A stretch of 20,886 bases of DNA from the NCBI GenBank assembly GCA_964553705.1, contig CAZKKV010000016.1, forward strand, positions 1-20,886. Reading direction: 5' to 3'. A program made the translations under genes and the position numbers. Source of the DNA: an uncultured Gammaproteobacteria bacterium (GTDB taxonomy: Bacteria > Patescibacteriota > Patescibacteriia > Patescibacteriales > GWC2-42-12). Shown piece by piece: positions 3,510 to 20,886 of this stretch; position 1 is the stretch's first letter, and every line of letters starts with the position of its first letter. Below the pieces are notes generated by a model. That model saw only the letters and a list, made by a program, of their open reading frames with translations. It made no database searches and was not told where the DNA came from.

Positions 3510-3800
3510 TCACAATGTTCTGATATTTACGCCAAATCCTCTGTGCTTTGTAAAACACCTGCTAGCTTTGGATGTTCTTGCAATTCTTTCTTCCATTCTT
3601 TTTCTTTTGTTATTGCCTTTTCTCTCTCTTACCTTCTCTCTTCGTTGTTGCTGTTCTATTTCTAAAATTCTTGCTAGTTTTTTCCACTCATCATCTTCAC
3701 TAATCTTGGTTAACACCGCGACAGCTGTTTCGTTAAAAAAATTCAACAACACTCTCCCAGTATCTCCCAAAATCACAATAACTTTTTTCCCAGATAGCAT
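3510..3800 (-). CDS. hypothetical small basic protein (96 aa)
   Basis: ORF with AAGGAGGGGG RBS 4-5 nt upstream of ATG; N-terminus MLSGKKVIVILGDTG, very basic C-terminus (RREKVRERKGNNKRKRMEER); TGA stop; follows ychF on the same strand. Confidence 0.5.
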   Translation of the reverse strand: MLSGKKVIVILGDTGRVLLNFFNETAVAVLTKISEDDEWKKLARILEIEQQQRREKVRERKGNNKRKRMEERIARTSKASRCFTKHRGFGVNIRTL

Positions 3801-10329: not shown

Positions 10330-11430
10330 CTATTTTTTAGCGTACCACCACGAAGCAATAAAAGTAGAGATTGGCACCGCCAAAATTAAACCAATACTAC
10401 CGACCAATGCTCTGACAATTTCTGTAGCAATAATTTCATTATTCGCAATTTGGCTCCAACTGGAAAAAGCACTTTGCCCAGAGATAAACAAAATTAACAA
10501 AGGCAAAGATACTCCGGCATAAGCTAAAAATAAAGTATTGGACATTGAAGAAATATGAGAAATGCCAATTTGATAAGCTCTTTTAAAGAGTTCTTTTTTA
10601 TTTAAAAAAGTATCGGTTTTTGCTAGCTGTTCAACTGACGCCACTTGCGATATCACTACGTCATCAAGTGCGCCAAGGAAACCAATAATAATACCTGCCA
10701 GAAGTAGACCTTGAAAATTTATACTTTGTCCGCCAAAACTAATAAGAAACATTGCTTCATCACTGATTATGCCAGTTAATTTTGTTAGACTGACAAACAA
10801 CTGTGACAAAAACAAAGTTAAAGCCAAACCAATAAAAACACTAACCACTGCTACATGTGAACGGATGCAAAATCCTTCAGTTAAATAAATAATTATCAAG
10901 AGTATTACCAAAGAACCAAATAAAGTTATAATCACTGGATTAGCGCCAGTAAGTATTTGCGGCAAAATAAATTTAACAATAATTAAAAATGACAACGCCA
11001 ATGATAAAAGTGACCGAAAACCTTTCCAACGCCCAACAATCAAAAGTGTTAAAATAAAAAATCCCGCTAGCCCTAACAAACTATTATTTCTGACATAATC
11101 AGTAATATAGAAAAAAACATTTTCTTGATCATCATAACTGGCAACTACCAATACTTTATCTCCTGAATGATAAATATTGTTTTTCAAGACTTCAAGTTCA
11201 TTTATATTATTTATTACAAATTCCTTATCGGTAAATTCTCCATCAAGTCCTTTTAACAATAAGTCTTGTTGAATAATTTTTTGTCCATTATCTGTCTCTA
11301 TTTCTTGTTGTTCAACCACTTCTAAGACTTTAGCATTGAAGAAACTGTCATCAATTGCTATAACTGGACAAATAGGCGCTGATATAAAAATAATTGAAAG
11401 CAAAAATAAAAGATAATTTATTTTTTTCAT
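10330..11430 (-). CDS. YibE/F-like polytopic membrane protein (signal peptide, about 110-aa extracytoplasmic domain, 6-7 TM helices)
   Basis: 366 aa; architecture and GALDDVVISQVASV-type segment recall the YibE/F family; TAG stop. Confidence 0.6.
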   Translation of the reverse strand: MKKINYLLFLLSIIFISAPICPVIAIDDSFFNAKVLEVVEQQEIETDNGQKIIQQDLLLKGLDGEFTDKEFVINNINELEVLKNNIYHSGDKVLVVASYDDQENVFFYITDYVRNNSLLGLAGFFILTLLIVGRWKGFRSLLSLALSFLIIVKFILPQILTGANPVIITLFGSLVILLIIIYLTEGFCIRSHVAVVSVFIGLALTLFLSQLFVSLTKLTGIISDEAMFLISFGGQSINFQGLLLAGIIIGFLGALDDVVISQVASVEQLAKTDTFLNKKELFKRAYQIGISHISSMSNTLFLAYAGVSLPLLILFISGQSAFSSWSQIANNEIIATEIVRALVGSIGLILAVPISTFIASWWYAKK

Positions 11431-11501
11431 GATTTTATTTTATCTATAATTAATTATAATTTTAGCACGATATTTTGAATCATCCCAGTCAGCCTTCAAT
11501 C

Positions 11502-11530
11502 TTGACAAAAAAGCCAATTACCGCTATACT
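11502..11530 (+). promoter_or_regulatory. near-consensus sigma70 promoter TTGACA-17-TATACT
   Basis: TTGACA 11502-11507, 17-nt spacer, TATACT 11525-11530; about 60 nt upstream of the zinc-ribbon ORF. Confidence 0.6.
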
Positions 11531-11595
11531 GATTTCATAATTAAATAATATTTGCGTTCTTTTCCAAAATAAATTAACGCAAACAAAAAATCTAA

Positions 11596-11766
11596 ATGTC
11601 AGATTACAACAACGGCGGCGACCGCCAGATGTACCAAGGCGATTGGACTTGCTCCGAATGTGGGGCCAAGATCACTGAATTGCCTTTTCAACCGGATGGA
11701 GACAGGCCGCTTTTCTGCCGAGATTGCCACAGGCAAAAAAGGCAGGACAGACCAAGACGATTCTAA
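11596..11766 (+). CDS. small zinc-ribbon protein (56 aa; CxxC-x17-CxxC, zf-trcl-like)
   Basis: MSDYNNGGDRQMYQGDWTCSECGAKITELPFQPDGDRPLFCRDCHRQKRQDRPRRF; not in the ORF track (under 60 aa); the overlapping 90-aa minus-strand ORF is low complexity and rejected; upstream of cspA on the same strand. Confidence 0.6.
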   Translation: MSDYNNGGDRQMYQGDWTCSECGAKITELPFQPDGDRPLFCRDCHRQKRQDRPRRF

Positions 11767-11825
11767 GACAGAATCTCTTGCCAGAAACATATTATAGACC
11801 ACAAATCGATTAATATATTTCTCGT

Positions 11826-11866
11826 CCAAACAAAAACCGTTCCAATTTATTGGGGCGGTTTTTGCG
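11826..11866 (+). terminator. rho-independent terminator AAAACCGUUCCAA-UUUA-UUGGGGCGGUUUUUG (two G·U pairs on the plus strand)
   Basis: stem plus T-run read directly after the zinc-ribbon stop. Confidence 0.55.
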
Positions 11867-12030
11867 TACAAGAAAGCATTGTCAAAAATAATTTTTTATG
11901 CTAATTTTACAATATTGAATTTTTTCTTTAAAAAATCTCAACAACAGCCCGTGAGGCTATTAATAGTAAATGTAGAAATCAAGTCGAATTTCTACTAGCT
12001 ATTTTATAATTAATTTGATTTTCTACATTC

Positions 12031-12228
12031 ATGCAAGGAACTATTAAAAAATTGACTGATAAGCATTTTGGCTTTATCAGTCAGGAAGGCGTTGAAAAAG
12101 ATTTATTCTTTCACGCCAATGAATTGGTTGATGTGGAATTCGACCAACTCAGAGAAGGCGATGCCGTCACCTTTGAGATAAGCGATACTCCAAAAGGCCA
12201 AGCTGCCGTGCAAGTAAAAAAAGCTTAA
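12031..12228 (+). CDS. cspA: cold-shock protein (CspA family)
   Basis: 65 aa; GTIKKLTDKHFGFISQEG...DLFFHANEL... is canonical CSD with RNP1/RNP2; structured 5' UTR with nested inverted repeats (AAATGTAGAAAT...ATTTCTAC...TTTTCTACATT, 11967-12029). Confidence 0.95.
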   Translation: MQGTIKKLTDKHFGFISQEGVEKDLFFHANELVDVEFDQLREGDAVTFEISDTPKGQAAVQVKKA

Positions 12229-12254
12229 GACTTTTTTAGATAGCGCAAAACAAA

Positions 12255-12290
12255 AACCGCCCCAAATACTCGGGGTGGTTTTTGCGTATT
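12255..12290 (+). terminator. rho-independent terminator AACCGCCCC-AAAUACU-CGGGGUGGUUUUUG after cspA
   Basis: GC stem plus T-run; flanks shared with the terminators at 11826 and 15575 (acaaaaaccg...ggtttttgcgta). Confidence 0.6.
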
Positions 12291-12321
12291 TAAAAATTGG
12301 GGGGTAAAAATTATTTCATAT

Positions 12322-12855
12322 TCAATCGAGATGAAGTTTATATAAACAAATAAAATCTTTTTCCCATTCCCAAGCTAAGCCAGGGTATTTTTTGATTAAA
12401 TTTCTTAATTCATTTATCATTTTTTTACTTTTTAAATATTCCATATAATTTAAAAATTTTTTATTACTTATTTTTTTCAAGCTTGGGCATAATTTTTTTC
12501 TCATTCGAGATAAAAAAATTTCTCTATTTTTTTTAACCAAAATAAATGGCCACAATGCGCAATCTAAAGGACGACAATCGTAAACTTGGCATTCATTAGT
12601 TTCTTCGTTTAAAAATGGGCACAAATAAATATTTGTTTTTTTTGATTTTTTTAAACGTACTTGAAAAATATTTTTATTTTTTTTAAACTGCTTAAAATTA
12701 ATTCTTGTCCCCGTTTTTTTATAAATATTATTTGTTTCAATGTCAGTAGCAATTGGTGCAAAATACTTATCTTTTAATAGAAAACGACAACAAGGCGTGT
12801 GGCAAGAGAAACAATCCTGTGAATTTATTATTTTATTTATTTTTATTTCTAACAT
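12322..12855 (-). CDS. YkgJ/UPF0153-family CxxCxxCC putative zinc/iron-chelating protein
   Basis: 177 aa; CFSCHTPCC plus CPFLNEETNECQVYDCRPLDCALWPF matches the C..C...CC ... C..Y..RP..C..YP signature (PF03692-like); 14 nt downstream of the ATP-grasp gene (operon). Confidence 0.75.
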   Translation of the reverse strand: MLEIKINKIINSQDCFSCHTPCCRFLLKDKYFAPIATDIETNNIYKKTGTRINFKQFKKNKNIFQVRLKKSKKTNIYLCPFLNEETNECQVYDCRPLDCALWPFILVKKNREIFLSRMRKKLCPSLKKISNKKFLNYMEYLKSKKMINELRNLIKKYPGLAWEWEKDFICLYKLHLD

Positions 12856-12869
12856 TTTGATTTTAAAGA

Positions 12870-15353
12870 TTAAATAATATTTGTCTGCAAATGATAATAA
12901 CTAGGCTTATTTTTGTAGCGTTTGATTGTCATTCTGATTATTTCTTCCAAAAAATCTCCATAATCCATGCCAACAAATTTTGAAGTGCGTGACAAACAAT
13001 CTTTTACATTAATAGATGGATTAGGGTTTAATTCCAAAACATAAGGGTTATTATTCTTGTCAACTTTTACTTCTACTCGACCGTAATCATGACAGTCTAA
13101 AATATTATAAGTATCAAGAGCAATTTCGGTAATCAAAGATTCTAGTTTTTTATTACTATTTTTGGACGGCTCTTCCACTATGACAGTTTTATAAACCGGA
13201 TCGTTTGCCCATTTGGAATCATAAGCATAAATATGCCAATAACCCTTAGGCATTTTATCAAAAATTGAGCGCGATAAAGGCAGAACGCGTAAGTCGTCCT
13301 CCTCACTACCAATAATAGGCACGTCATATTCATCACCTTCAATATATTCTTCAATCAATGCTGGGCTACCCAACTCAACAATTACTTTTTTCAATTGTTT
13401 TTTTAATTCTCGTTTATTTATCACCACTGATTCATTGGTAATGCCTATTGAATTGTCAGTATTGGCTGGCTTAACTATCAGGGGGTATTTTAATTCGTCG
13501 TCAATTTCATCATCAATGTTGTAAGCATAATCCCATTTGGCTGTCGGAATACCATGATAGGTTAATAATTTTTTTACTCTGATTTTATCAATACATAAAC
13601 CAAGCGTAAATGGATTGGAACCGGTATAAGGAATTTGCAATATGTCAAAAATCGAAGCAGCATGCGGTTCTAATAAACTGGAATTATTTATTCTTTCGCA
13701 GACATTAAAAACCAAATCAACGTTGCTGTCTTTTAACTCGTTAAACGCTTTTGGTAAATCGTTAAAATCAAAAAAAGTTGCTTGGTAGCCTCTTTCACCT
13801 AAAGTTTTTTCAATATTTTTACCTACAGAAAAAAGTTCAGTGTCAATAACTTCATTTTCATCTAGCGGTAAGTTGCAAGCGATACCGATATGCAAATTAC
13901 GTTGATTAGCAATTAATAATCGTCTGATTTTTTCCAATTTAGCAGCGCCTTTCAAAATTTCTTTATTAGCCGAAGCCATAGAGAATCTGTTTCTTCTTAA
14001 TGTCTTGCCGATTGAAGATGCCGGATCAAATTTGGCAGTTTCATAACGAACACTTTTTAAAATTTCATCAAGATTGTCTTCAGCGTCAATTGGATTATCG
14101 CCAGAGGCAACCATCCAACCCAAATATTCATAACCTTCTGGCGGGACTAGGACGGTGTCGCCGATTTTTTTAAACAAATACAACTCTTCAAGATTTTTAT
14201 TTTTTTTAATTTTTTCATCAACATCCAATTTAACTAGTAATCCTGAATCATCGGGCGTAAAAGTATTACTAATTAAATATTTATACGGTTCAATCGGTTT
14301 TTTTAACTTCTCAACATAAATTCCCAGAGCGATTTTCACAGCATTTTCAATCAAATCAACTCTCCAAGCTTCTTTGGTAAAGGCGTATGTTTCATCACCA
14401 CCCATTCTTAAATTTATTTCAATCGGCACTGGACCGTTTTTTGTTGCTTTGGCTTCAAAATGAATACAGCCGTTTTGTATTTCTAATTTTTCTAAAACTC
14501 TTTCTGCCATTTCGAATAAAGCTGTTTGATCCTTTTCTGGCAAGTCAGACGGAATAGCTTGTTGATGTTCAATAAAAAAAGGTTCTTCAGTTTTGTAATT
14601 ATCAACGATTGAATAAAATTTTATTTTGCCATTTTGTAATAAAATATCAATATCAACTTCATCGCCGTCAATATATTCTTCAATTAAAATTTCCACACCT
14701 TCACTCAATGACGATTCAACGGCTGGTGAAATATTTTTTTTGACGTAATTATATGTGTCAAAAAAATCGTCCTGATTTTCAGCTTTGACAACAAAAGCGC
14801 TTGAAGAGCCAAAAATCGGTTTGAAGACAACTGGAAATTTCAAACCATTTGTTGCACGACCAATGTCTTTGTCGGATTTAATCAGCAAATGTCTTGGAAA
14901 AGCAATACTATTTTCTTCACAAAATTGTCTGAACAAAAATTTATTACGTGCTTTTTTGGCAGTTTCTAATGGAATGCCAACCAAATTAAGTTGCTCAACT
15001 ATTTTGGAAATCAATAGCACGTCATCTTCCCAAAAAGTAATTACACCGTCAATATTTATCTCAGAATGAGAAGCCAAGAATTGCTCTAAATCTTCCAAAG
15101 CTTTGGCGTGATTGCGGTTATCAGTAATCACCCAATCGTCAACATAAGGACTAGCCCAATTTTTTTCCGGATTTATGACAATTATTTTTAAACCGAGTCT
15201 TTTAAGTTTTTGAACGATAAACTTTTTTTTGAGTGAACCAGTATTGACCAACAACAAGGTTTTACCTGCAAACAAACCATTATTCTGATGATTATTATTA
15301 TTGTTTTTTCTGCTATGATTCATAAAATTTTTTAGATAAACAAAAAAAGACAA
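12870..15353 (-). CDS. large tandem ATP-grasp ligase (two ATP-grasp modules; the C-terminal one is D-Ala-D-Ala-ligase-like)
   Basis: 827 aa; module 1 FPVVFKPIFGSSSAFVVKA...EINLRMGGDE; module 2 YPLIVKPANTDNSIGI...VLELNPNPS; TTG start called by the ORF track (an internal ATG at codon 11, MNHSRK, is an alternative). Confidence 0.85.
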   Translation of the reverse strand: MSFFVYLKNFMNHSRKNNNNNHQNNGLFAGKTLLLVNTGSLKKKFIVQKLKRLGLKIIVINPEKNWASPYVDDWVITDNRNHAKALEDLEQFLASHSEINIDGVITFWEDDVLLISKIVEQLNLVGIPLETAKKARNKFLFRQFCEENSIAFPRHLLIKSDKDIGRATNGLKFPVVFKPIFGSSSAFVVKAENQDDFFDTYNYVKKNISPAVESSLSEGVEILIEEYIDGDEVDIDILLQNGKIKFYSIVDNYKTEEPFFIEHQQAIPSDLPEKDQTALFEMAERVLEKLEIQNGCIHFEAKATKNGPVPIEINLRMGGDETYAFTKEAWRVDLIENAVKIALGIYVEKLKKPIEPYKYLISNTFTPDDSGLLVKLDVDEKIKKNKNLEELYLFKKIGDTVLVPPEGYEYLGWMVASGDNPIDAEDNLDEILKSVRYETAKFDPASSIGKTLRRNRFSMASANKEILKGAAKLEKIRRLLIANQRNLHIGIACNLPLDENEVIDTELFSVGKNIEKTLGERGYQATFFDFNDLPKAFNELKDSNVDLVFNVCERINNSSLLEPHAASIFDILQIPYTGSNPFTLGLCIDKIRVKKLLTYHGIPTAKWDYAYNIDDEIDDELKYPLIVKPANTDNSIGITNESVVINKRELKKQLKKVIVELGSPALIEEYIEGDEYDVPIIGSEEDDLRVLPLSRSIFDKMPKGYWHIYAYDSKWANDPVYKTVIVEEPSKNSNKKLESLITEIALDTYNILDCHDYGRVEVKVDKNNNPYVLELNPNPSINVKDCLSRTSKFVGMDYGDFLEEIIRMTIKRYKNKPSYYHLQTNII

Positions 15354-15395
15354 TTCGAAAAATGCCTTCTGTTCAAAAGTAATAATATTAAATTT

Positions 15396-15533
15396 TTAAT
15401 TTGTTCTGAACAAAAATTGTTCAGGGGGTCTGGTTCTGTATCCGAAAACGGATTCATATTTTAATTGTCGGCTAGCGCTTTGAGTTAAACGCAGTTGACG
15501 CGCCGGACGATTGTATTTACTAGATAGAATCAT
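15396..15533 (-). CDS. speculative 45-aa basic peptide ORF directly upstream of the ATP-grasp gene (MILSSKYNRPARQLRLTQSASRQLKYESVFGYRTRPPEQFLFRTN)
   Basis: open frame found by manual translation; no clear SD; locally GC-rich; position fits a candidate substrate/precursor peptide but this is inference only. Confidence 0.15.
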   Translation of the reverse strand: MILSSKYNRPARQLRLTQSASRQLKYESVFGYRTRPPEQFLFRTN

Positions 15534-15574
15534 TTTAGAACAACTGTAGAAAAAAGCAAGAGAGTAGACATAAA

Positions 15575-15606
15575 AACCGCTTCGATTACTCGGGGTGATT
15601 TTTATT
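15575..15606. terminator. hairpin AACCGCUUCG-AUUA-CUCGGGGUGAUUUUUAUUUU immediately 5' (plus orientation) of repeat copy A
   Basis: stem ccgcttcg/ctcggggtg with a wobble, T-run follows. Confidence 0.45.
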
Positions 15607-15612
15607 TTAGCT

Positions 15613-15672
15613 GGGTCACGTCGTGAAGGAGATTGGAACTGTATTTAAAAATATTGATAAATTTATTTATAT
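15613..15672. repeat. copy A of a ~60-nt direct repeat (core gggtcacgtcgtgaaggagattggaactgtatttaaa identical for 37 nt; 55/60 overall with copy B)
   Basis: direct comparison with 16948-17007; on the minus strand the repeat lies about 260 nt upstream of the ATP-grasp gene start and is preceded by a TATAAAT box. Confidence 0.75.
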
Positions 15673-15746
15673 TCCTTGTCTAATAAATAAAAACGACGGT
15701 TAACCAAACGAATGATTAACCGCCTTCAAGTTGAGAGGTGAACGGA

Positions 15747-16721
15747 TTATTTTTTCTCCTCTTTTTCCGCAGGAGGGGTCGGTGAAACAGTTTTTGTTCT
15801 ATTTACTTCATAATCACCGGGGGTAGCGGCGACCGGTGTTCCGTAGGGCATAAAAATAACTTTACTGATTGATTTTGCCTCTTCGCCAGTGACCAGATTG
15901 TTAAACGCATCAACGTATTTTTCCTTAATAGCCAGGTCTTTCCACTGAAGAAGTTCGGGGGCGATAGATAAAGCATTCGCCAAATTTTTAGCTTCTTGAG
16001 CTAAAACGTCCTTTTTGGCAACCTGCAAGGCTTTTTCTTTTACCTGACGCTTCTCGGAAATTTCGGTAGATTTTAAGAGTTCCTGCTCGGCAAGCATACG
16101 CGGGGGCGGATTGATGTTTGAAATATTCACACTCAATACCCCGATGGGAGTGCCCTTGAATTGCGTTCTCAACCAATTGGTAGCTTTTTCGTTCAATTCC
16201 GCTCGTTTTTCCTTGGCGGTTCCGTATTCTTCTTTACCGAGCATATTTCTGATTTCTGTGCGGAATGGCTCCCGATATCGGTCATTCCAAAAATTCATAT
16301 AGTTTTCAAAATAGTCTTTGGCATTTATTTTGAATTTCTCAATGTTTGCGTCGGGCGTGGCTGGAGAATTTATGATGTAAAGGATTACCGAGGCAGATAA
16401 TTCCATATTAATTCGGTCAACAGACATAATTCTGGCATCGGTTTCCTTGTTCTCGCCGGCTCCACCGATTGGACTAAAATATTCTTTGACCGTCCAGGGC
16501 TTATAGGTTTGATGGTATCGGATTCCATTGCACCAACCAAATCCATAAGATGACGGACCGATAATGATGCCCAGAAATTCACCTTTTTCCCCAATAATAA
16601 ATGGTTGGTTGGTGACATACCCCACTTCACCTGCTGGGACACTGGGGTTCGAGCAACCGATAGTGCTCACCAGAACAAAACATACAAGCAATACAAGCAA
16701 AAATCTGGAAAATCTTTTCAT
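15747..16721 (-). CDS. SPFH/band-7 (prohibitin-like) domain lipoprotein
   Basis: 324 aa; lipoprotein signal MKRFSRFLLVLLVCFVLVSTIGC (lipobox); central SPFH-like region and C-terminal coiled coil (AEQELLKSTEISEKRQVKEKALQVAKKDVLAQEAKNLANALS); AGGAGG RBS. Confidence 0.65.
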   Translation of the reverse strand: MKRFSRFLLVLLVCFVLVSTIGCSNPSVPAGEVGYVTNQPFIIGEKGEFLGIIIGPSSYGFGWCNGIRYHQTYKPWTVKEYFSPIGGAGENKETDARIMSVDRINMELSASVILYIINSPATPDANIEKFKINAKDYFENYMNFWNDRYREPFRTEIRNMLGKEEYGTAKEKRAELNEKATNWLRTQFKGTPIGVLSVNISNINPPPRMLAEQELLKSTEISEKRQVKEKALQVAKKDVLAQEAKNLANALSIAPELLQWKDLAIKEKYVDAFNNLVTGEEAKSISKVIFMPYGTPVAATPGDYEVNRTKTVSPTPPAEKEEKK

Positions 16722-16914
16722 TTTGTTTCCTCCTGTTTCAATTATTTTTTATATTGCCGAAAAACATTTGCCTTATTAAGGTATTTTTGATTTTTTATCC
16801 TCCTTAAATTTTGTATTTTAAAGAAACGAAAAATAATTACACAATTCAACATATTTATATAACATATATTTTAAATTTAGTCAATCGTAAAATTTATTTA
16901 TTCTATTTAAATTA

Positions 16915-16946
16915 TAAAAAACTGCTAGTTTTAGCAGTTTTTTTCG
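16915..16946. terminator. perfect hairpin AAACUGCUAG-UUU-UAGCAGUUU flanked by an A-run and T-run (bidirectional intrinsic terminator) immediately 5' of repeat copy B
   Basis: 8-9 bp perfect stem, TTTTTTT follows on the plus strand, A-run precedes. Confidence 0.55.
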
Positions 16947-16947
16947 T

Positions 16948-17007
16948 GGGTCACGTCGTGAAGGAGATTGGAACTGTATTTAAAGATATTGATGAACATA
17001 TTTATAT
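16948..17007. repeat. copy B of the ~60-nt direct repeat
   Basis: see copy A; lies about 225 nt upstream (minus strand) of the SPFH lipoprotein gene start; falls inside six-frame ORF 16811-17035, which is judged spurious. Confidence 0.75.
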
Positions 17008-17026
17008 ACCGAATCTAATGCAATAT

Positions 17027-17797
17027 TTAATTTAAAGTGGCTATCCATTTTTTAAATATTTTTTTAACTTCATTTAAATGCTGTTTACCTCTAAAGGTGT
17101 GGGGGGCTCCTTTTATAATATAAAATTCTTTTTTACTCGACAATTTATCATATAACAATTGCTGATGATTAGGTGGTATTGAATCGTCTAATTCTCCCAC
17201 AATAATCAATACGGGCATAGTTAACATATCAGCTTTTCTCAATAAATCATATTTCATCCGATCCTCCATGTGCGACCATTTTAATTTTTTGATTAAACCA
17301 GGTTTTGATTTACTCTCTTGAATTTTCCAACCAGTTCTTTTCCAATTATCTATTTCTTCTTTGGAATGAGCCTTAAGACTTAGTTTCCCGGAAATGAGAG
17401 CGGAAATCGGAGCAATAGCTTTTATTTTTTGAGGATAATTTTCTGCATAATAAGCTATACAAAAACCACCTAGACTGTGACCAGTCAGACAAAATGGCTC
17501 CTTATACCAACTCTGTGTTTCCGCCCAATTAATTACATCTTCTAAATCTTCGTAGTAATTTGTCACCGTAGCATTTTCATATTGACCGTCGCTTTCACCA
17601 ATCGTATTGGTAGTATCAAACATAACAACGGTATAACTGTTTTCCTTAAAAGCGTTTGCGAATGTTCTAATATGATCCTGTTCCTTAAATCCTCCCAATC
17701 CGTGCATTACAAACACTAATCCTTTTTGATTTTGTATCTCTTCAATAGTTACCACTATCTTTTGGTTTTTTCTATTTTTAATAATTTTTTTATCCAT
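17027..17797 (-). CDS. alpha/beta-fold serine hydrolase (esterase/lipase-like)
   Basis: 256 aa; nucleophile elbow LTGHSLGG; HGLGG oxyanion region; C-terminal His-containing motif GAPHTF. Confidence 0.85.
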   Translation of the reverse strand: MDKKIIKNRKNQKIVVTIEEIQNQKGLVFVMHGLGGFKEQDHIRTFANAFKENSYTVVMFDTTNTIGESDGQYENATVTNYYEDLEDVINWAETQSWYKEPFCLTGHSLGGFCIAYYAENYPQKIKAIAPISALISGKLSLKAHSKEEIDNWKRTGWKIQESKSKPGLIKKLKWSHMEDRMKYDLLRKADMLTMPVLIIVGELDDSIPPNHQQLLYDKLSSKKEFYIIKGAPHTFRGKQHLNEVKKIFKKWIATLN

Positions 17798-17840
17798 ATG
17801 ATTTTATTTTAGTTCAATTCCCTAAGTTGGTCAAACAAAA

Positions 17841-17868
17841 AATACCGCTATAATTAGCGGTATTTTTA
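17841..17868. terminator. hairpin ACCGCUA-UAAU-UAGCGGU flanked by AAAAAAU and UUUUU; terminates the tRNA-His transcript (minus strand)
   Basis: perfect 7-bp stem with A/T runs on both sides. Confidence 0.55.
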
Positions 17869-17871
17869 CCT

Positions 17872-17944
17872 GGGTGGCTAGAGGGAATTGAACCCTCGCC
17901 AGCGGCGCCACAAGCCGCTGTTCTACCATTAAACTATAGCCACC
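17872..17944 (-). tRNA. tRNA-His (anticodon GTG) with encoded G-1; CCA not encoded
   Basis: minus-strand sequence G-GTGGCTA TA GTTT AATGGTAGAAC A GCGGC TTGTGGC GCCGC ... GAGGG TTCAATT CCCTC TAGCCAC C; manual cloverleaf; GC-rich relative to flanks. Confidence 0.85.
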
Positions 17945-17998
17945 ATGGACCGCCTTCGGCGGTAAATCTCAAAATACAAAAATCAAATTACAAATAAA

Positions 17999-18532
17999 CT
18001 ATGCTTTGTAAAAATAAATTTTTTCACCATTAGCTTCCAAAATTTTCTCTGCTGTCCAATTTGGTAAAGAAAATTTATAGCTAACAATCGTTGCACCAGC
18101 CCGACATTCAGCTCTAAACTTTTTAGCCAATTTATTCATCATTTTCTGATTTAAATAACAGTATATCAAATCCGCTTCGCCGACGTCAATCTTGAATAAA
18201 TTTTTCTTTTTGAATTCTATCCTTAATCCTTGGCAAGCTGACTGAATGCAAGATATAAAATACGGCCAAAAAGAATTTTCTATACCAATCAAGTTGACAT
18301 TTGAAAATTTCGTACGAGCCGCTTTCAAAAAACCAGCTCTACCACTTCCTAATTCGTAAATTTTATTTATTTGGACTAAATCAACGCTGTCTAAAACTTT
18401 TTTTACCACTTCTGATTTACTAGAAATAAACGGCGCAAATCCACGAAAAATAATATTAAAAAACATTTCACCCAACAAAATCATCACCATCAAAATTATT
18501 ACGCCTGAAATAATAAAAAATGATTCCGTCAT
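17999..18532 (-). CDS. membrane-anchored class I SAM-dependent methyltransferase
   Basis: 177 aa; N-terminal TM helix; motif I ELGSGRAGF; lies between two tRNA genes. Confidence 0.65.
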   Translation of the reverse strand: MTESFFIISGVIILMVMILLGEMFFNIIFRGFAPFISSKSEVVKKVLDSVDLVQINKIYELGSGRAGFLKAARTKFSNVNLIGIENSFWPYFISCIQSACQGLRIEFKKKNLFKIDVGEADLIYCYLNQKMMNKLAKKFRAECRAGATIVSYKFSLPNWTAEKILEANGEKIYFYKA

Positions 18533-18568
18533 ATGTTTAAATTAATTTTAAATTCTTAATTCACCTAG

Positions 18569-18640
18569 TACGCCCAGAGGGAATCGAACCCCCATAGCCA
18601 GCTTAGAAGGCTGGTGTTCTATCCGTTGAACTATAGGCGC
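18569..18640 (-). tRNA. tRNA-Arg (anticodon TCT); acceptor stem has G·U pairs; CCA not encoded
   Basis: minus-strand sequence GCGCCTA TA GTTC AACGGATA GAAC A CCAGC CTTCTAA GCTGG CTAT GGGGG TTCGATT CCCTC TGGGCGT A; manual cloverleaf. Confidence 0.75.
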
Positions 18641-18802
18641 ATACTATTTTGTTAAATTCTAAATTCAGTTCTTGATTATTTTAATTTCCAAATACTTAAA
18701 ATTTAAAAATTAACTTTCATTCAAAATTCTTAATTCAAAATTCACAATTCTTTTTACTATGGGCGCATACACAAAATAAAAATTGCCCTATGGCAATACA
18801 CT

Positions 18803-18831
18803 AAATTTACCAAAAATATCGTTTTTTGTCA
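18803..18831 (-). promoter_or_regulatory. sigma70-like promoter TTGACA-17-TAAATT (minus strand) about 155 nt upstream of tRNA-Arg; its -35 lies inside the duplicated terminator-promoter cassette
   Basis: revcomp 18826-18831 TTGACA; 17-nt spacer; revcomp 18803-18808 TAAATT; palindrome ATTGCC-ctat-GGCAAT at 18781-18796 near the predicted start. Confidence 0.45.
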
Positions 18832-18847
18832 ATTTTCATATGAAAAA

Positions 18848-18873
18848 AGCACGTTAATTAAAATCAACGTGCT
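18848..18873 (-). terminator. intrinsic terminator AGCACGUU-N10-AACGUGCU followed (minus strand) by UUUUUUCAUAUG; ends the P3-P2-P1 operon
   Basis: 8-bp perfect stem; A-run 18842-18847 on the plus strand; homologous copy at 19993-20018. Confidence 0.6.
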
Positions 18874-18886
18874 TCTGTTTCTTGTG

Positions 18887-19216
18887 TTAGTCATTCTCTT
18901 CTACCCAGTCCTTTTCGTGTTTACAAACTACTACGACAATAGGCTTTTTTCGAGAAATTTCAAGTACGAAATACAATATCCAGCTGACGACTACCCCTCC
19001 AATAAATGCCCCCAAATCAATTTTGTCATTGACAGGAATACGTATTGGCAACAAATCATTCATTGCCGCAAAAAATAACCCAAAAATAAAGAAAAAAATC
19101 TTTTCTACCGTCGGTGAATCTTTTATTAAACTTCTGATAAAAAGACACAAAAACAACCCCATTAAAAAACTAAAGCCATATACCACGTATTGCATTACTT
19201 CTAATGATGATTCCAT
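18887..19216 (-). CDS. small 3-TM membrane protein, paralogue B1 (109 aa), homologous to 20033-20323
   Basis: MESSLEVMQYVVYGFSFLMG... versus MEIIPEIMKYMAYVFSLLAG...; shared IFF.IFG.FF.A...PVN...FGG.V..W..Y; homologous RBS regions; overlaps the upstream gene by 16 nt. Confidence 0.6.
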   Translation of the reverse strand: MESSLEVMQYVVYGFSFLMGLFLCLFIRSLIKDSPTVEKIFFFIFGLFFAAMNDLLPIRIPVNDKIDLGAFIGGVVVSWILYFVLEISRKKPIVVVVCKHEKDWVEEND

Positions 19217-19557
19217 TTTCTTTCACCTTTCTTTTTCACAAAAATTTCTTTTAAGCAAGCAAGAATTGTAAAAAATATGATGGCACATCCTGTCCCAAAA
19301 AGAAAACCATTAACAACAAACTGATTCCAAAATTTTAGCCCCGTCAAAGTGGCGAAAAAAAACATCAAAAACAAAATAACTGAGAAAAAAATTAAATTAA
19401 AAGTAAAATGATATATTTCTATCTTTCCCCATAGTTTCCCTGGCGGTAATTTTTGTATTACAGGAATCATAACAATCGCAACGGCAACAGCATAATATCC
19501 TGCTCCGAGAGCTACAATCCATGCAATCATATTGTAACGAACTATAAAAGATTCCAT
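19201..19557 (-). CDS. small 3-4 TM membrane protein, paralogue A1 (118 aa), homologous to 20314-20649
   Basis: AWIVALGAGYYAV versus AGWFVALATGFLAG; GFLFGTGCAIIFFTIL versus GLFTGAGFFLTLFLI; GGGGAGG RBS. Confidence 0.6.
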   Translation of the reverse strand: MESFIVRYNMIAWIVALGAGYYAVAVAIVMIPVIQKLPPGKLWGKIEIYHFTFNLIFFSVILFLMFFFATLTGLKFWNQFVVNGFLFGTGCAIIFFTILACLKEIFVKKKGERKWNHH

Positions 19558-19578
19558 CTTCTACCTCCCCGATTGATT

Positions 19579-19896
19579 CTAAAAAGGATCATCCTTTTCT
19601 ATTTCGGAATAAACGCCGATGAAAATTAACAAAAAAGTTACTACGCCACAATTAAAAATTTCCACGACAAATTTCATATCAAAAAAATTCATCGAAATAC
19701 TTTCTTGAAAAATGCCATTCATAATCCCGAAAATTATCATACCCATCATAAAAGAAATACCCCAATAACCACTGTCTAAATACTGTTCCATTTCTCTCCT
19801 AAGCATTATCTCTGCTATGGCAGGGAGAAACGTAAACCCCGACAGAAAAATAGAAACAAAACCTAAAGTTAAAATCAAAAATTTAATAAAAATCAT
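19579..19896 (-). CDS. small 3-TM membrane protein (105 aa), first gene of the P3-P2-P1 operon; its RBS/start region is homologous to that of 20314-20649
   Basis: RBS AGAAGGGAGGGAGAGTGAAAAATGATTTTT versus AAAAGGGGAGGGAATGAAAAATGAATTTT; weak protein similarity to the A-type paralogues. Confidence 0.55.
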   Translation of the reverse strand: MIFIKFLILTLGFVSIFLSGFTFLPAIAEIMLRREMEQYLDSGYWGISFMMGMIIFGIMNGIFQESISMNFFDMKFVVEIFNCGVVTFLLIFIGVYSEIEKDDPF

Positions 19897-19992
19897 TTTT
19901 CACTCTCCCTCCCTTCTTTTTTTTCTTTTTTTCAATGAACCTATTTTCTTTTTACTAAAATTACCATCTTTTGTCAATTTTCATATGAAAAA

Positions 19993-20018
19993 AGCACGTT
20001 GGTTGAAATCAACGTGCT
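19993..20018 (-). terminator. intrinsic terminator, second copy of AGCACGUU-N10-AACGUGCU plus U-run, ending the P5-P4 operon; the embedded TTGACA(-35)-17-TAAAAA promoter for P3-P2-P1 follows
   Basis: the ~70-nt segment 19969-20043 is about 90% identical to 18824-18897. Confidence 0.6.
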
Positions 20019-20032
20019 TCTGTTTTTTTGTG

Positions 20033-20323
20033 TTAATCATCCCTTCCCACCAAACCCTCATCACTTTTATAACTTAGATAGGATAGCCAAAAGATAACTA
20101 TTCCACCAAAAAATATCGAATAACAAGTTACCGTATTAACAGGGGCAGATACTACAAGATGACCGGCTTCGCTTGCCGAAAATAACGCACCAAACAAAAA
20201 AATTATCGTTTTCTTTATTGACCAGCCTATTGCTAAGCTAGCGAAAAAAAGGGCAAAAAGCCACCCAGCAAGGAGGCTAAATACATATGCCATATATTTC
20301 ATTATTTCTGGAATTATCTCCAT
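20033..20323 (-). CDS. small 3-TM membrane protein, paralogue B2 (96 aa)
   Basis: see 18887-19216; even its 3' end and terminator are homologous. Confidence 0.6.
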   Translation of the reverse strand: MEIIPEIMKYMAYVFSLLAGWLFALFFASLAIGWSIKKTIIFLFGALFSASEAGHLVVSAPVNTVTCYSIFFGGIVIFWLSYLSYKSDEGLVGRDD

Positions 20324-20649
20324 TCTTCCTCACCTCTCTTTCCAACATCTTTACAAGAAACTTTCCTACAATATTTTTTAAAATGATAAATAAGAAAAAG
20401 AGTAAGAAAAAACCCCGCACCAGTAAAAAGACCTATGGCGACATACAAGAGGTCAATTACTCTTGGTCCAACCAAGATGTCAAGAAAAATCATTATGGTT
20501 AAAATCGCCAGTAGAGAGAAAAAACAACGAAAAATAAAACGATCTTTTTGTCTGTCTATCAATAATTCTATCATGAATCCAGCAAGAAAACCTGTTGCAA
20601 GAGCCACAAACCATCCTGCTATGTTGCAAAATAATCCAGCAAAATTCAT
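20314..20649 (-). CDS. small 3-4 TM membrane protein, paralogue A2 (111 aa)
   Basis: see 19201-19557; overlaps the downstream gene by 10 nt; GGGGAGGG RBS. Confidence 0.6.
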   Translation of the reverse strand: MNFAGLFCNIAGWFVALATGFLAGFMIELLIDRQKDRFIFRCFFSLLAILTIMIFLDILVGPRVIDLLYVAIGLFTGAGFFLTLFLIYHFKKYCRKVSCKDVGKRGEEEWR

Positions 20650-20748
20650 TTTTCATTCCCTCCCCTTTTATAATTTTTTAATTTTTAATGTTCATTTTAA
20701 AATTATTAAATATTAACAAGACAACGACTTTTTGTCAATATAGATGAT

Positions 20749-20886
20749 TATTTTCTTTTCTTACCGTGAAATGCTTTGTGGACATCACGCAACTGTTGAT
20801 CAGTAATATGAGTATAGACTTGTGTGGTGGTAATTGATGAATGACCAAGCATCGCTTGCACGCTCCTGATATCCGCCCCGCCCATC
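20749..20886 (-). CDS. tyrosine-type site-specific recombinase/integrase (XerC/XerD-like), C-terminal fragment; gene continues beyond the window end
   Basis: minus-strand translation ...[43 protein letters not shown] carries the catalytic-Tyr box LGHSSIxTTQVYTH; TAA stop is revcomp of 20749-20751. Confidence 0.8.

Follow-up and report, generated by a model that had tools for sequence, protein, structure and literature searches.

Two closely similar intergenic sequences lie on either side of a single SPFH/Band_7 lipoprotein gene in contig CAZKKV010000016.1 (20,886 nucleotides, here termed the window), a chromosomal stretch of a genome of the Patescibacteria (candidate phyla radiation). Why is this one gene bracketed in such a manner, and what is the repeated sequence, hereinafter R, with its copies R_A and R_B? 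Our tentative reading is that an SPFH cassette of 1.3 kb, acquired horizontally, came to lie here when two copies of a constrained intergenic module recombined, and that R_A and R_B mark its junctions; we give this reading somewhat less than an even chance. As a statement on origin, it can coexist with a reading of R as a small-RNA gene or as a plus-strand regulatory sequence. How the tiny genomes of Patescibacteria gain single genes is little known; if the reading is true, an 80-nucleotide (nt) conserved intergenic module would act as a landing pad for a complete, self-expressed foreign gene, and would do so without a mobility gene.

The extent of R was established by a repeat search of the window together with blastn. 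The copies align over 83 nt at 86.7% identity, with 1335 nt from start to start (coordinates in Table 1). They share an exact 37-nt core, GGGTCACGTCGTGAAGGAGATTGGAACTGTATTTAAA, for which a scan of the window at up to three mismatches recovered these two sites only, and for which none of 100 shuffles contained any match. To the right of the core the copies agree at 19 of 23 positions and remain similar for approximately 12 nt more (to 15684 and 17019), after which the similarity decays to noise. An earlier note on this DNA had described a direct repeat of about 60 nt with the same core and a tail matching at 18 of 23 positions (92%); the core and its place are borne out by our analysis, and the count in the tail needs amendment, the 60-nt stretch being identical at 56 positions (93%). 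The repeat is real and non-random; with 11 mismatches in the 83 nt, a mismatch-free run of 37 has a probability (P) of ~0.01.

Short contigs of the same population, obtained from four ENA samples and one JGI sample via exact look-ups of window proteins, supplied a third version of the repeat. Contig L009, from a co-occurring strain, matches the window at 100% over 14796-15490 and drops to 60-70% identity right of ~15550, across hairpin A and R. Inside this divergent patch, at the same locus and directly after a plus-strand terminator, is a diverged version of R, which we term R_C; the collapse of identity places R at the edge of a strain-variable segment. In an ungapped alignment of the A, B and C versions two blocks survive, exactly 30 nt apart in all three and free of indels: block 1, GGGTCACGTCGTG[A/G]AGGAGATT, retains 21 of 22 positions between A and C, and block 2, ATTTATAT[T/A]CC, retains 11 of 11. 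The 30-nt spacer between them is 57% identical in the same comparison and the sequence outside the blocks 57-60%. Since both blocks would jointly survive by chance with P ~0.004 (19 mismatches placed at random in 72 nt), part of R is under nucleotide-level constraint. Constraint alone does not explain the 37-nt run, because in R_C 15 of the 37 core bases shared by A and B have not been kept. Within block 1 the palindrome TCACG-T-CGTGA is followed by a Shine-Dalgarno (SD)-like GAAGGAGA, which becomes an anti-SD sequence when read on the minus strand; the SD-complementary motif that the earlier note had placed in the core is thus found in block 1. We flag this constrained combination of palindrome and SD/anti-SD sequence as one with no database counterpart.

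The gene enclosed by the copies looks foreign, with the sequence profile of one that moves between lineages, because its third-position G+C content (GC3), its strong SD, a homologue G+C content independent of the host and the non-syntenic contexts of its relatives all point in this direction. Its G+C fraction is 0.43 and its GC3 0.434, against a GC3 of 0.23-0.35 in the neighbouring genes. No SD was found at 16 of the 23 window starts examined, and strong ones are confined to the SPFH gene, five small open reading frames (ORFs) of an island at 18887-20649 and an ORF at 3510-3800; most native genes examined lack an SD, many of them appearing leaderless or with AT-rich leaders. One of the starts that look leaderless is that of the alpha/beta hydrolase gene, where TTGACC-17-TAAAAT stands directly before the ATG. 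The SPFH family is rare, with 17 homologues found, and those at 75-83% identity occur in unrelated contexts without R; the homologues have a G+C fraction of ~0.39-0.42, while their host contigs, the window included, range over 0.34-0.48. Between the repeats there is exactly one expression unit, complete in that it has a promoter and a terminator of its own. No relatives of the SPFH gene were recovered from IMG/VR, where carriage by phages was looked for, and PADLOC gave no match that would suggest a role in defence. Two side observations concern this family: a second strong SD-like motif (AAGGAGGA) lies on the minus strand in the SPFH leader at 16798-16803, ~70 nt upstream of the real ribosome-binding site and with no start codon at a usable distance, and a G+C-rich (~0.5) segment of ~750 nt without a called gene (2294-3050 of contig L007) lies downstream of an 83%-identical SPFH homologue.

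We read the copies of R as insertion junctions because the cargo looks foreign, identity between strains collapses at this point and contigs break at R. The same-population contigs end at or before R, and the ends of four of them, from two samples, lie inside it or at its edge (L001 at 16984, L002 at 16965, L015 at 17000 and L009 at ~15694, 19 nt past R_C). In the mechanism that we propose, a resident R would have had the plus-strand hairpin A on one side and the 3' end of the hydrolase gene on the other, and incoming DNA with an SPFH gene beside a related R copy would have recombined with it. The exchange, either a single Campbell-type crossover or homologous recombination, would have fallen inside the 37-nt identical stretch and would have left one hybrid R on either side of an insert comprising terminator B, the promoter, the SPFH gene and the SPFH terminator. 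A Campbell-type crossover within the core would give exactly the present gene order, which on the minus strand is the hydrolase gene, copy B, hairpin B, the SPFH promoter, gene and terminator, copy A, hairpin A, ~220 nt of G+C-richer sequence and the gene for an ATP-grasp ligase. At the right edge of the core the match between A and B drops abruptly, which suggests a recombination endpoint there. We infer both this order of events and the origin of the exact core in recombination at R rather than in later gene conversion.

Several points weigh against insertion at R. The 37-nt core shows no recombinase-type core site, that is, inverted arms around a 6-8 bp overlap, and the tyrosine recombinase in the vicinity, which is Xer-like, belongs to a separate island at a distance of ~3.5 kb. 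Gene conversion between two older copies of R would account for the exact core equally well. The SPFH relatives at 75-83% identity without R indicate that R does not travel with the SPFH gene in general, and the contig breaks can be explained by the repeat itself at a small assembly k-mer size and low coverage. Neither an empty site, in which hairpin A would be joined via the core to the right half of R_B and the hydrolase gene, nor a circular junction was retrieved among the relatives and the same-population contigs, and a function of R in its own right is again something that we infer from sequence. The earlier note had also offered the copies as att-like repeats around a 1.3-kb single-gene cassette. 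The cassette is the part of this proposal with the most support, given the foreign SPFH gene and the abrupt change in identity, and an identical core in direct orientation does occur at both ends of compositionally foreign DNA. Att sites of the integrase type were not recognised: the repeats enclose no gene besides SPFH, the core has just a 5-1-5 palindrome, and neither an integrase-type core architecture nor a cognate integrase in or beside the element was found.

Further copies of R were sought at several scales. None is present in the rest of the window or in the 3.8 kb past it (contig L003), 24.7 kb in total, and an nhmmer profile of the three R versions found no additional copy in ~150 kb of the relatives' loci. 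In 185,579 GTDB species genomes, JGI metagenome contigs and IMG/VR, queries with exact 24-28-mers from the core and with a degenerate 21-mer for block 1 returned four chance matches only, all of them in high-GC coding sequence; the JGI scan missed contig L008, which is known to carry copy A, so that short contigs are not fully covered in that collection and a negative from it carries little weight. Searches of phage and plasmid collections with blastn gave AT-rich noise that left block 1 uncovered. Synteny offered no empty site either, the relatives of SPFH (75-83%), the ATP-grasp ligase (78%) and the hydrolase (71%) all being in different contexts. On the occurrence of the core in other genomes, a point raised in the earlier note, the outcome is no further copy in these collections and a third allele, R_C, in the same population.

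The hairpins beside the copies bear on what, if anything, is transcribed from R. The stem of hairpin A (15578-15597) folds at -11.9 kcal/mol on the plus strand vs -8.4 on the minus strand, and its allele in L009, although of different sequence, has the same bias (-18.0 vs -9.5 kcal/mol); on the minus strand both carry C-A mismatches. The 213 nt to the left of hairpin A have a folding z-score against shuffles of -3.05 on the plus strand vs -1.07 on the minus, significant on the plus strand only. Because of this plus-biased fold in both alleles and the structure confined to the plus strand, hairpin A most likely ends a structured plus-strand transcript (15400-15606), not an RNA made from the repeat. 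Hairpin B is the sole symmetric one of the two (-12.6 kcal/mol on the plus strand and -13.1 on the minus) and is the only terminator downstream of the hydrolase gene. Of the plus-strand terminator hairpins that the earlier note had seen before each copy, both are present; as a minus-strand terminator hairpin B is good and hairpin A weak. The plus-strand segment 15400-15606 is itself a candidate structured RNA of ~200 nt, situated between the ATP-grasp gene and copy A and ending in hairpin A. Rfam has no match to this region; in the strain allele of contig L002 a G-U pair of its stem GUCGGCU/AGUUGAC becomes A-U and the tip of the hairpin is replaced.

Might R instead be a pair of paralogous minus-strand small-RNA genes? 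Each would have block 2 (TATAAAT) as its promoter and block 1 (AAUCUCCUUCAC...) as a single-stranded anti-SD seed, and would yield an RNA of ~80-90 nt ending at the adjacent hairpin; we regard this as possible but on balance unlikely. The conserved blocks are at the positions expected of a -10 box and a seed, with the 30 nt between them varying, and TATAAAT is present in all three R versions. The 14 nt at 16995-17008, in copy B, recur unchanged in the -10 region of the SPFH promoter, where the sequence 16861-16848, TATATAAATATGTT, repeats block 2 of that copy; this promoter does have a TTGACT -35 box of the proper kind. After copy B comes the strong minus-strand terminator of hairpin B with its U-run, and copy A, like a transcription unit of its own, begins directly behind the SPFH terminator. 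The CU-rich block 1 is predicted to be unpaired and is complementary to GAAGGAGA; its best predicted partners in the window are SD-bearing genes. Set against these features, hairpin A and its L009 allele are plus-strand terminators that are weak on the minus strand, neither copy has a canonical -35 box before TATAAAT although the genome uses TTGACA-type promoters, and in R a promoter scan gave only plus-strand candidates and no minus-strand promoter. With RNAalifold, neither strand showed covariation or a conserved structure other than a 4-bp mini-hairpin and the terminators next to R. Rfam has no match in R (at E<=1 the whole window yields the two tRNAs and weak chance matches only, and at E<=10 the region 15330-17060 gives only noise below threshold, for instance a 26.8-bit resemblance of terminator B to STnc370, whose cut-off is 54 bits), and no copy of R was found in the genomes and metagenomes searched. 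Duplex energies against 23 translation-initiation regions are no better than those of shuffles (-21.9 vs a shuffled mean of -20.9 kcal/mol), and the seed pairing with ribosome-binding sites that the earlier note had envisaged finds no support within the window.

Other details of the small-RNA layout proposed in that note fared unevenly. The terminated form fits copy B, with its perfect 12-bp hairpin and U-run, and does not fit copy A or allele C. The distances from the copies to the gene starts, given there as 225-260 nt, agree with the 260 nt between copy A and the TTG start of the ATP-grasp gene at 15353 and the 227 nt between copy B and the SPFH ATG at 16721. TATAAAT (15672-15666 and 17007-17001) had been put ~40 nt upstream of the core; the distance is ~17 nt to the core and ~30 nt to AUCUCCUUCAC, with the box upstream of both. 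Our best guess as to the activity of R itself, as read from its sequence, is a minus-strand promoter (block 2) from which a short, CU-rich RNA (block 1) would be made; of the two copies, B alone has this arrangement in good form. A bolder extension, in which R makes a short anti-SD RNA that selectively damps SD-led horizontally acquired genes and R travels with or captures incoming cassettes, strikes us as very improbable; if true, such an RNA would amount to a translational form of xenogeneic silencing.

The bias of the hairpins also bears on a plus-strand alternative, which we consider quite unlikely: R would be a terminator-insulated regulatory module consisting of a terminator, a palindromic operator (TCACG-T-CGTGA) and a promoter firing rightwards, antisense to the convergent SPFH and hydrolase genes, with a -35-like TTAAAA or TTGTAA and a -10 TATATT inside block 2. 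Directly before each of the three R versions stands a hairpin with a T-run, acting on the plus strand, the promoter scan gave plus-strand candidates at 15644-15673 (9 of 12), allele C reads TTGTAA-17-TATATT, and the fixed 30-nt spacing of the blocks, free of indels, suits a spacing-dependent DNA element; the local GC skew is positive across 15350-15800. On the other hand, neither copy has a plus-strand gene or terminator after it, the -10 of copy B is poorer (TATATA), promoter-like matches in the region are no commoner than in shuffles (9 found vs 12.2 expected), and no cognate regulator was identified.

A coding explanation can be assessed from the same three versions. In this, R would encode a plus-strand protein of 22-26 residues from a GTG at 15623 or 16958 (MKEIGTVFKNIDKFIYIP...), and we give it hardly any credence. 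All three versions leave the frame open, for 26, 25 and 21 codons from the GTG, the peptide keeps a ...(I/L)D.(F/H)IYIP.L motif, and there are synonymous differences at Pro (CCT/CCG/CCA) and Leu (CTA/CTA/TTA). Yet substitutions between the diverged alleles are most frequent at codon position 1 (14-15 of 30) and rarest at position 3, the reverse of coding, and the peptides end in unrelated C-terminal sequences. The upstream terminator is too close to the GTG to leave room for a promoter, conservation of block 1 is at the level of nucleotides and not of codons, the peptide has no Pfam match, and three open frames of ~22 codons in AT-rich DNA are not significant after six-frame correction. The earlier note had observed that the same plus-strand frame is open through both copies without a credible start, and this holds: the frame is open with a possible GTG, there is no credible ORF, and a six-frame analysis of substitutions gives no sign of coding. 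A type I toxin-antitoxin system was considered and rejected, the plus-frame peptide being too little hydrophobic for a membrane helix and having the anti-coding substitutions; a hydrophobic alternative frame (LYLKILINLFIFLV) has stops in allele C.

If R neither codes nor acts, it could be a neutral leftover: either a local duplication left it as a scar, or it is what remains of the 3' end of an old, decayed gene with the minus frame ...NIFKYSSNLLHDVT*. Consistent with this are the presence of just two copies in 24.7 kb and none elsewhere, the fact that the minus frame has the most third-position and synonymous changes, and the occurrence of other intergenic repeat pairs nearby (D2 and D3, below). 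We judge it improbable: allele C, at 57-60% identity elsewhere, has the two blocks almost unchanged (P ~0.004), the minus frame is interrupted by a stop in allele C and lacks a start codon in copy A, and neither the plus- nor the minus-frame peptide matches a Pfam family.

The repeat pairs just mentioned are also of interest in their own right. D2 (18806-18894 and 19951-20040; 88% identical over 90 nt) comprises a terminator hairpin and a TTGACA promoter, and its copies lie downstream of paralogous small membrane-protein genes, o109 and o96. The proteins are just 35-37% identical, indicating that the intergenic module is much better kept than the genes that precede it. D3 consists of two bidirectional terminator hairpins (11828-11868 and 12248-12288; 83% identical) on either side of the cold-shock gene (12031-12228), and is the third case in the window of a small gene unit between similar intergenic sequences; hairpin A (15568-15608) is a 66% member of the D3 hairpin family.

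Two other classes of mobile DNA were tried for R and rejected. An element exploiting Xer recombination at dif sites (IMEX) was set aside since the sole dif-like stretch (GATAA-ATTTAT-TTATA) is outside the exact core, with a central hexamer of ATTTAT vs ACATAT between the copies; moreover, the cumulative GC skew has no lasting reversal over 11000-20886 and gene orientation does not switch at R. A miniature inverted-repeat transposable element or insertion-sequence remnant was likewise set aside, as no inverted repeat among the listed pairs joins the ends of R or of the 1335-nt unit and no transposase fragment is present.

Table 1. Positions of the repeat copies, their conserved parts and the adjoining features in the window
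Feature	Position	Strand	Remark
Repeat copy A (R_A)	15602-15684		Between plus-strand hairpin A and the T-run of the SPFH minus-strand terminator
Repeat copy B (R_B)	16938-17019		Between bidirectional hairpin B and the hydrolase stop codon
Exact core, copy A	15613-15649		First 22 nt (15613-15634) are conserved block 1, GGGTCACGTCGTGAAGGAGATT
Exact core, copy B	16948-16984		Block 1 at 16948-16969
Conserved block 2, copy A	15665-15675		ATTTATATTCC; on the minus strand GGAATATAAAT, -10-like
Conserved block 2, copy B	17000-17010		ATTTATATACC
Hairpin A and T-run	15575-15609	+	Intrinsic terminator working on the plus strand; three G-U pairs
SPFH intrinsic terminator	15685-15724	-	12-bp stem (15724-15695), -17.2 kcal/mol, then GTTTTTATTT; between SPFH stop and copy A
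SPFH/Band_7 lipoprotein gene	15747-16721	-	Enclosed cargo; strong SD upstream (CAGGAGGAA)
SPFH promoter, sigma-70 type	16848-16884	-	TTGACT (16884-16879), 17-nt spacer, TATATA (16861-16856)
Hairpin B	16915-16946		Perfect 12-bp stem with A-run and T-run, bidirectional
Alpha/beta hydrolase gene	17797-17027	-	Stop codon 17027-17029

The wider window carries genes for SSB, ribosomal protein S6, YchF, a MatE transporter, YibE/F and the cold-shock protein, two tRNAs and the ATP-grasp ligase, which is a double ATP-grasp protein whose homologues carry Patescibacteria names in public records. On the minus strand, copy B starts 8 nt past the hydrolase stop codon; neither this nor the SPFH gene's own terminator before copy A figures in the earlier note. 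The island noted above occupies 18887-20649 together with positions 1-3832 of contig L003, past the window end at 20886, and lies between the S15 gene and a tRNA-Arg gene. It encodes a four-helix-bundle protein (23S rRNA IVP-type), the Xer-like tyrosine recombinase and the five small membrane-protein ORFs; contig L010, a 78% relative, runs from S15 to tRNAs and a 177-residue gene without the island. Elsewhere, the segment 11450-11900 is a G+C-rich patch (0.40-0.44 vs ~0.30 nearby) for which the matching ENA contig has no called gene and Rfam no match; it may be another non-coding RNA.

With regard to known systems, short intergenic repeats that bracket an acquired gene are a kind already known in general, and R itself is lineage-restricted; no relevant literature on this element was found. 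Its practical significance is limited, the element being confined to one population and its activity predicted only. In a CU-rich block complementary to GAAGGAGA with a -10-like box ~30 nt upstream, a terminator after copy B and a position just downstream of a coding gene, R resembles trans-acting small RNAs with C/U-rich anti-SD seeds, including those adjacent to 3' untranslated regions with promoters of their own. It differs from them in having no good minus-strand terminator at A or allele C, no -35 box, conserved structure or significant targets, and in being limited to one population. With integron attC sites it shares conserved ~80-nt repeats between single-gene units and a tyrosine recombinase within a few kb, but R is not a long imperfect palindrome and the cassette carries its own promoter. 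An integron cassette array was in fact rejected as a candidate, there being no RYYYAAC or GTTRRRY sites in or beside R, and so was an integron integrase, the recombinase (seen only in L003) being Xer-like and scoring 129.6 bits vs a 265-bit cut-off for this class and 255 bits with the XerD model.

Parallels are also offered by cassettes that are exchanged by homologous recombination via conserved flanks or intergenic repeats, as in the neisserial minimal mobile elements and similar systems. Like these, the SPFH locus is a cassette of one or a few genes without mobility genes, situated between conserved sequences. The content of the neisserial elements differs between strains and the homology is usually in flanking conserved genes; here the homology would be an 80-nt intergenic module, and no alternative occupants were observed. 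With attL/attR islands and Campbell-type insertions the locus has in common direct repeats around foreign DNA, an exact core with diverging arms and a strain-variable position. Unlike in attL/attR islands, the insert is only 1.3 kb, has one gene, no integrase and no visible recombinase-type core, and the similarity between the copies of R runs ~35 nt past the core, which suggests two related pre-existing copies and an exchange that was homologous rather than site-specific.

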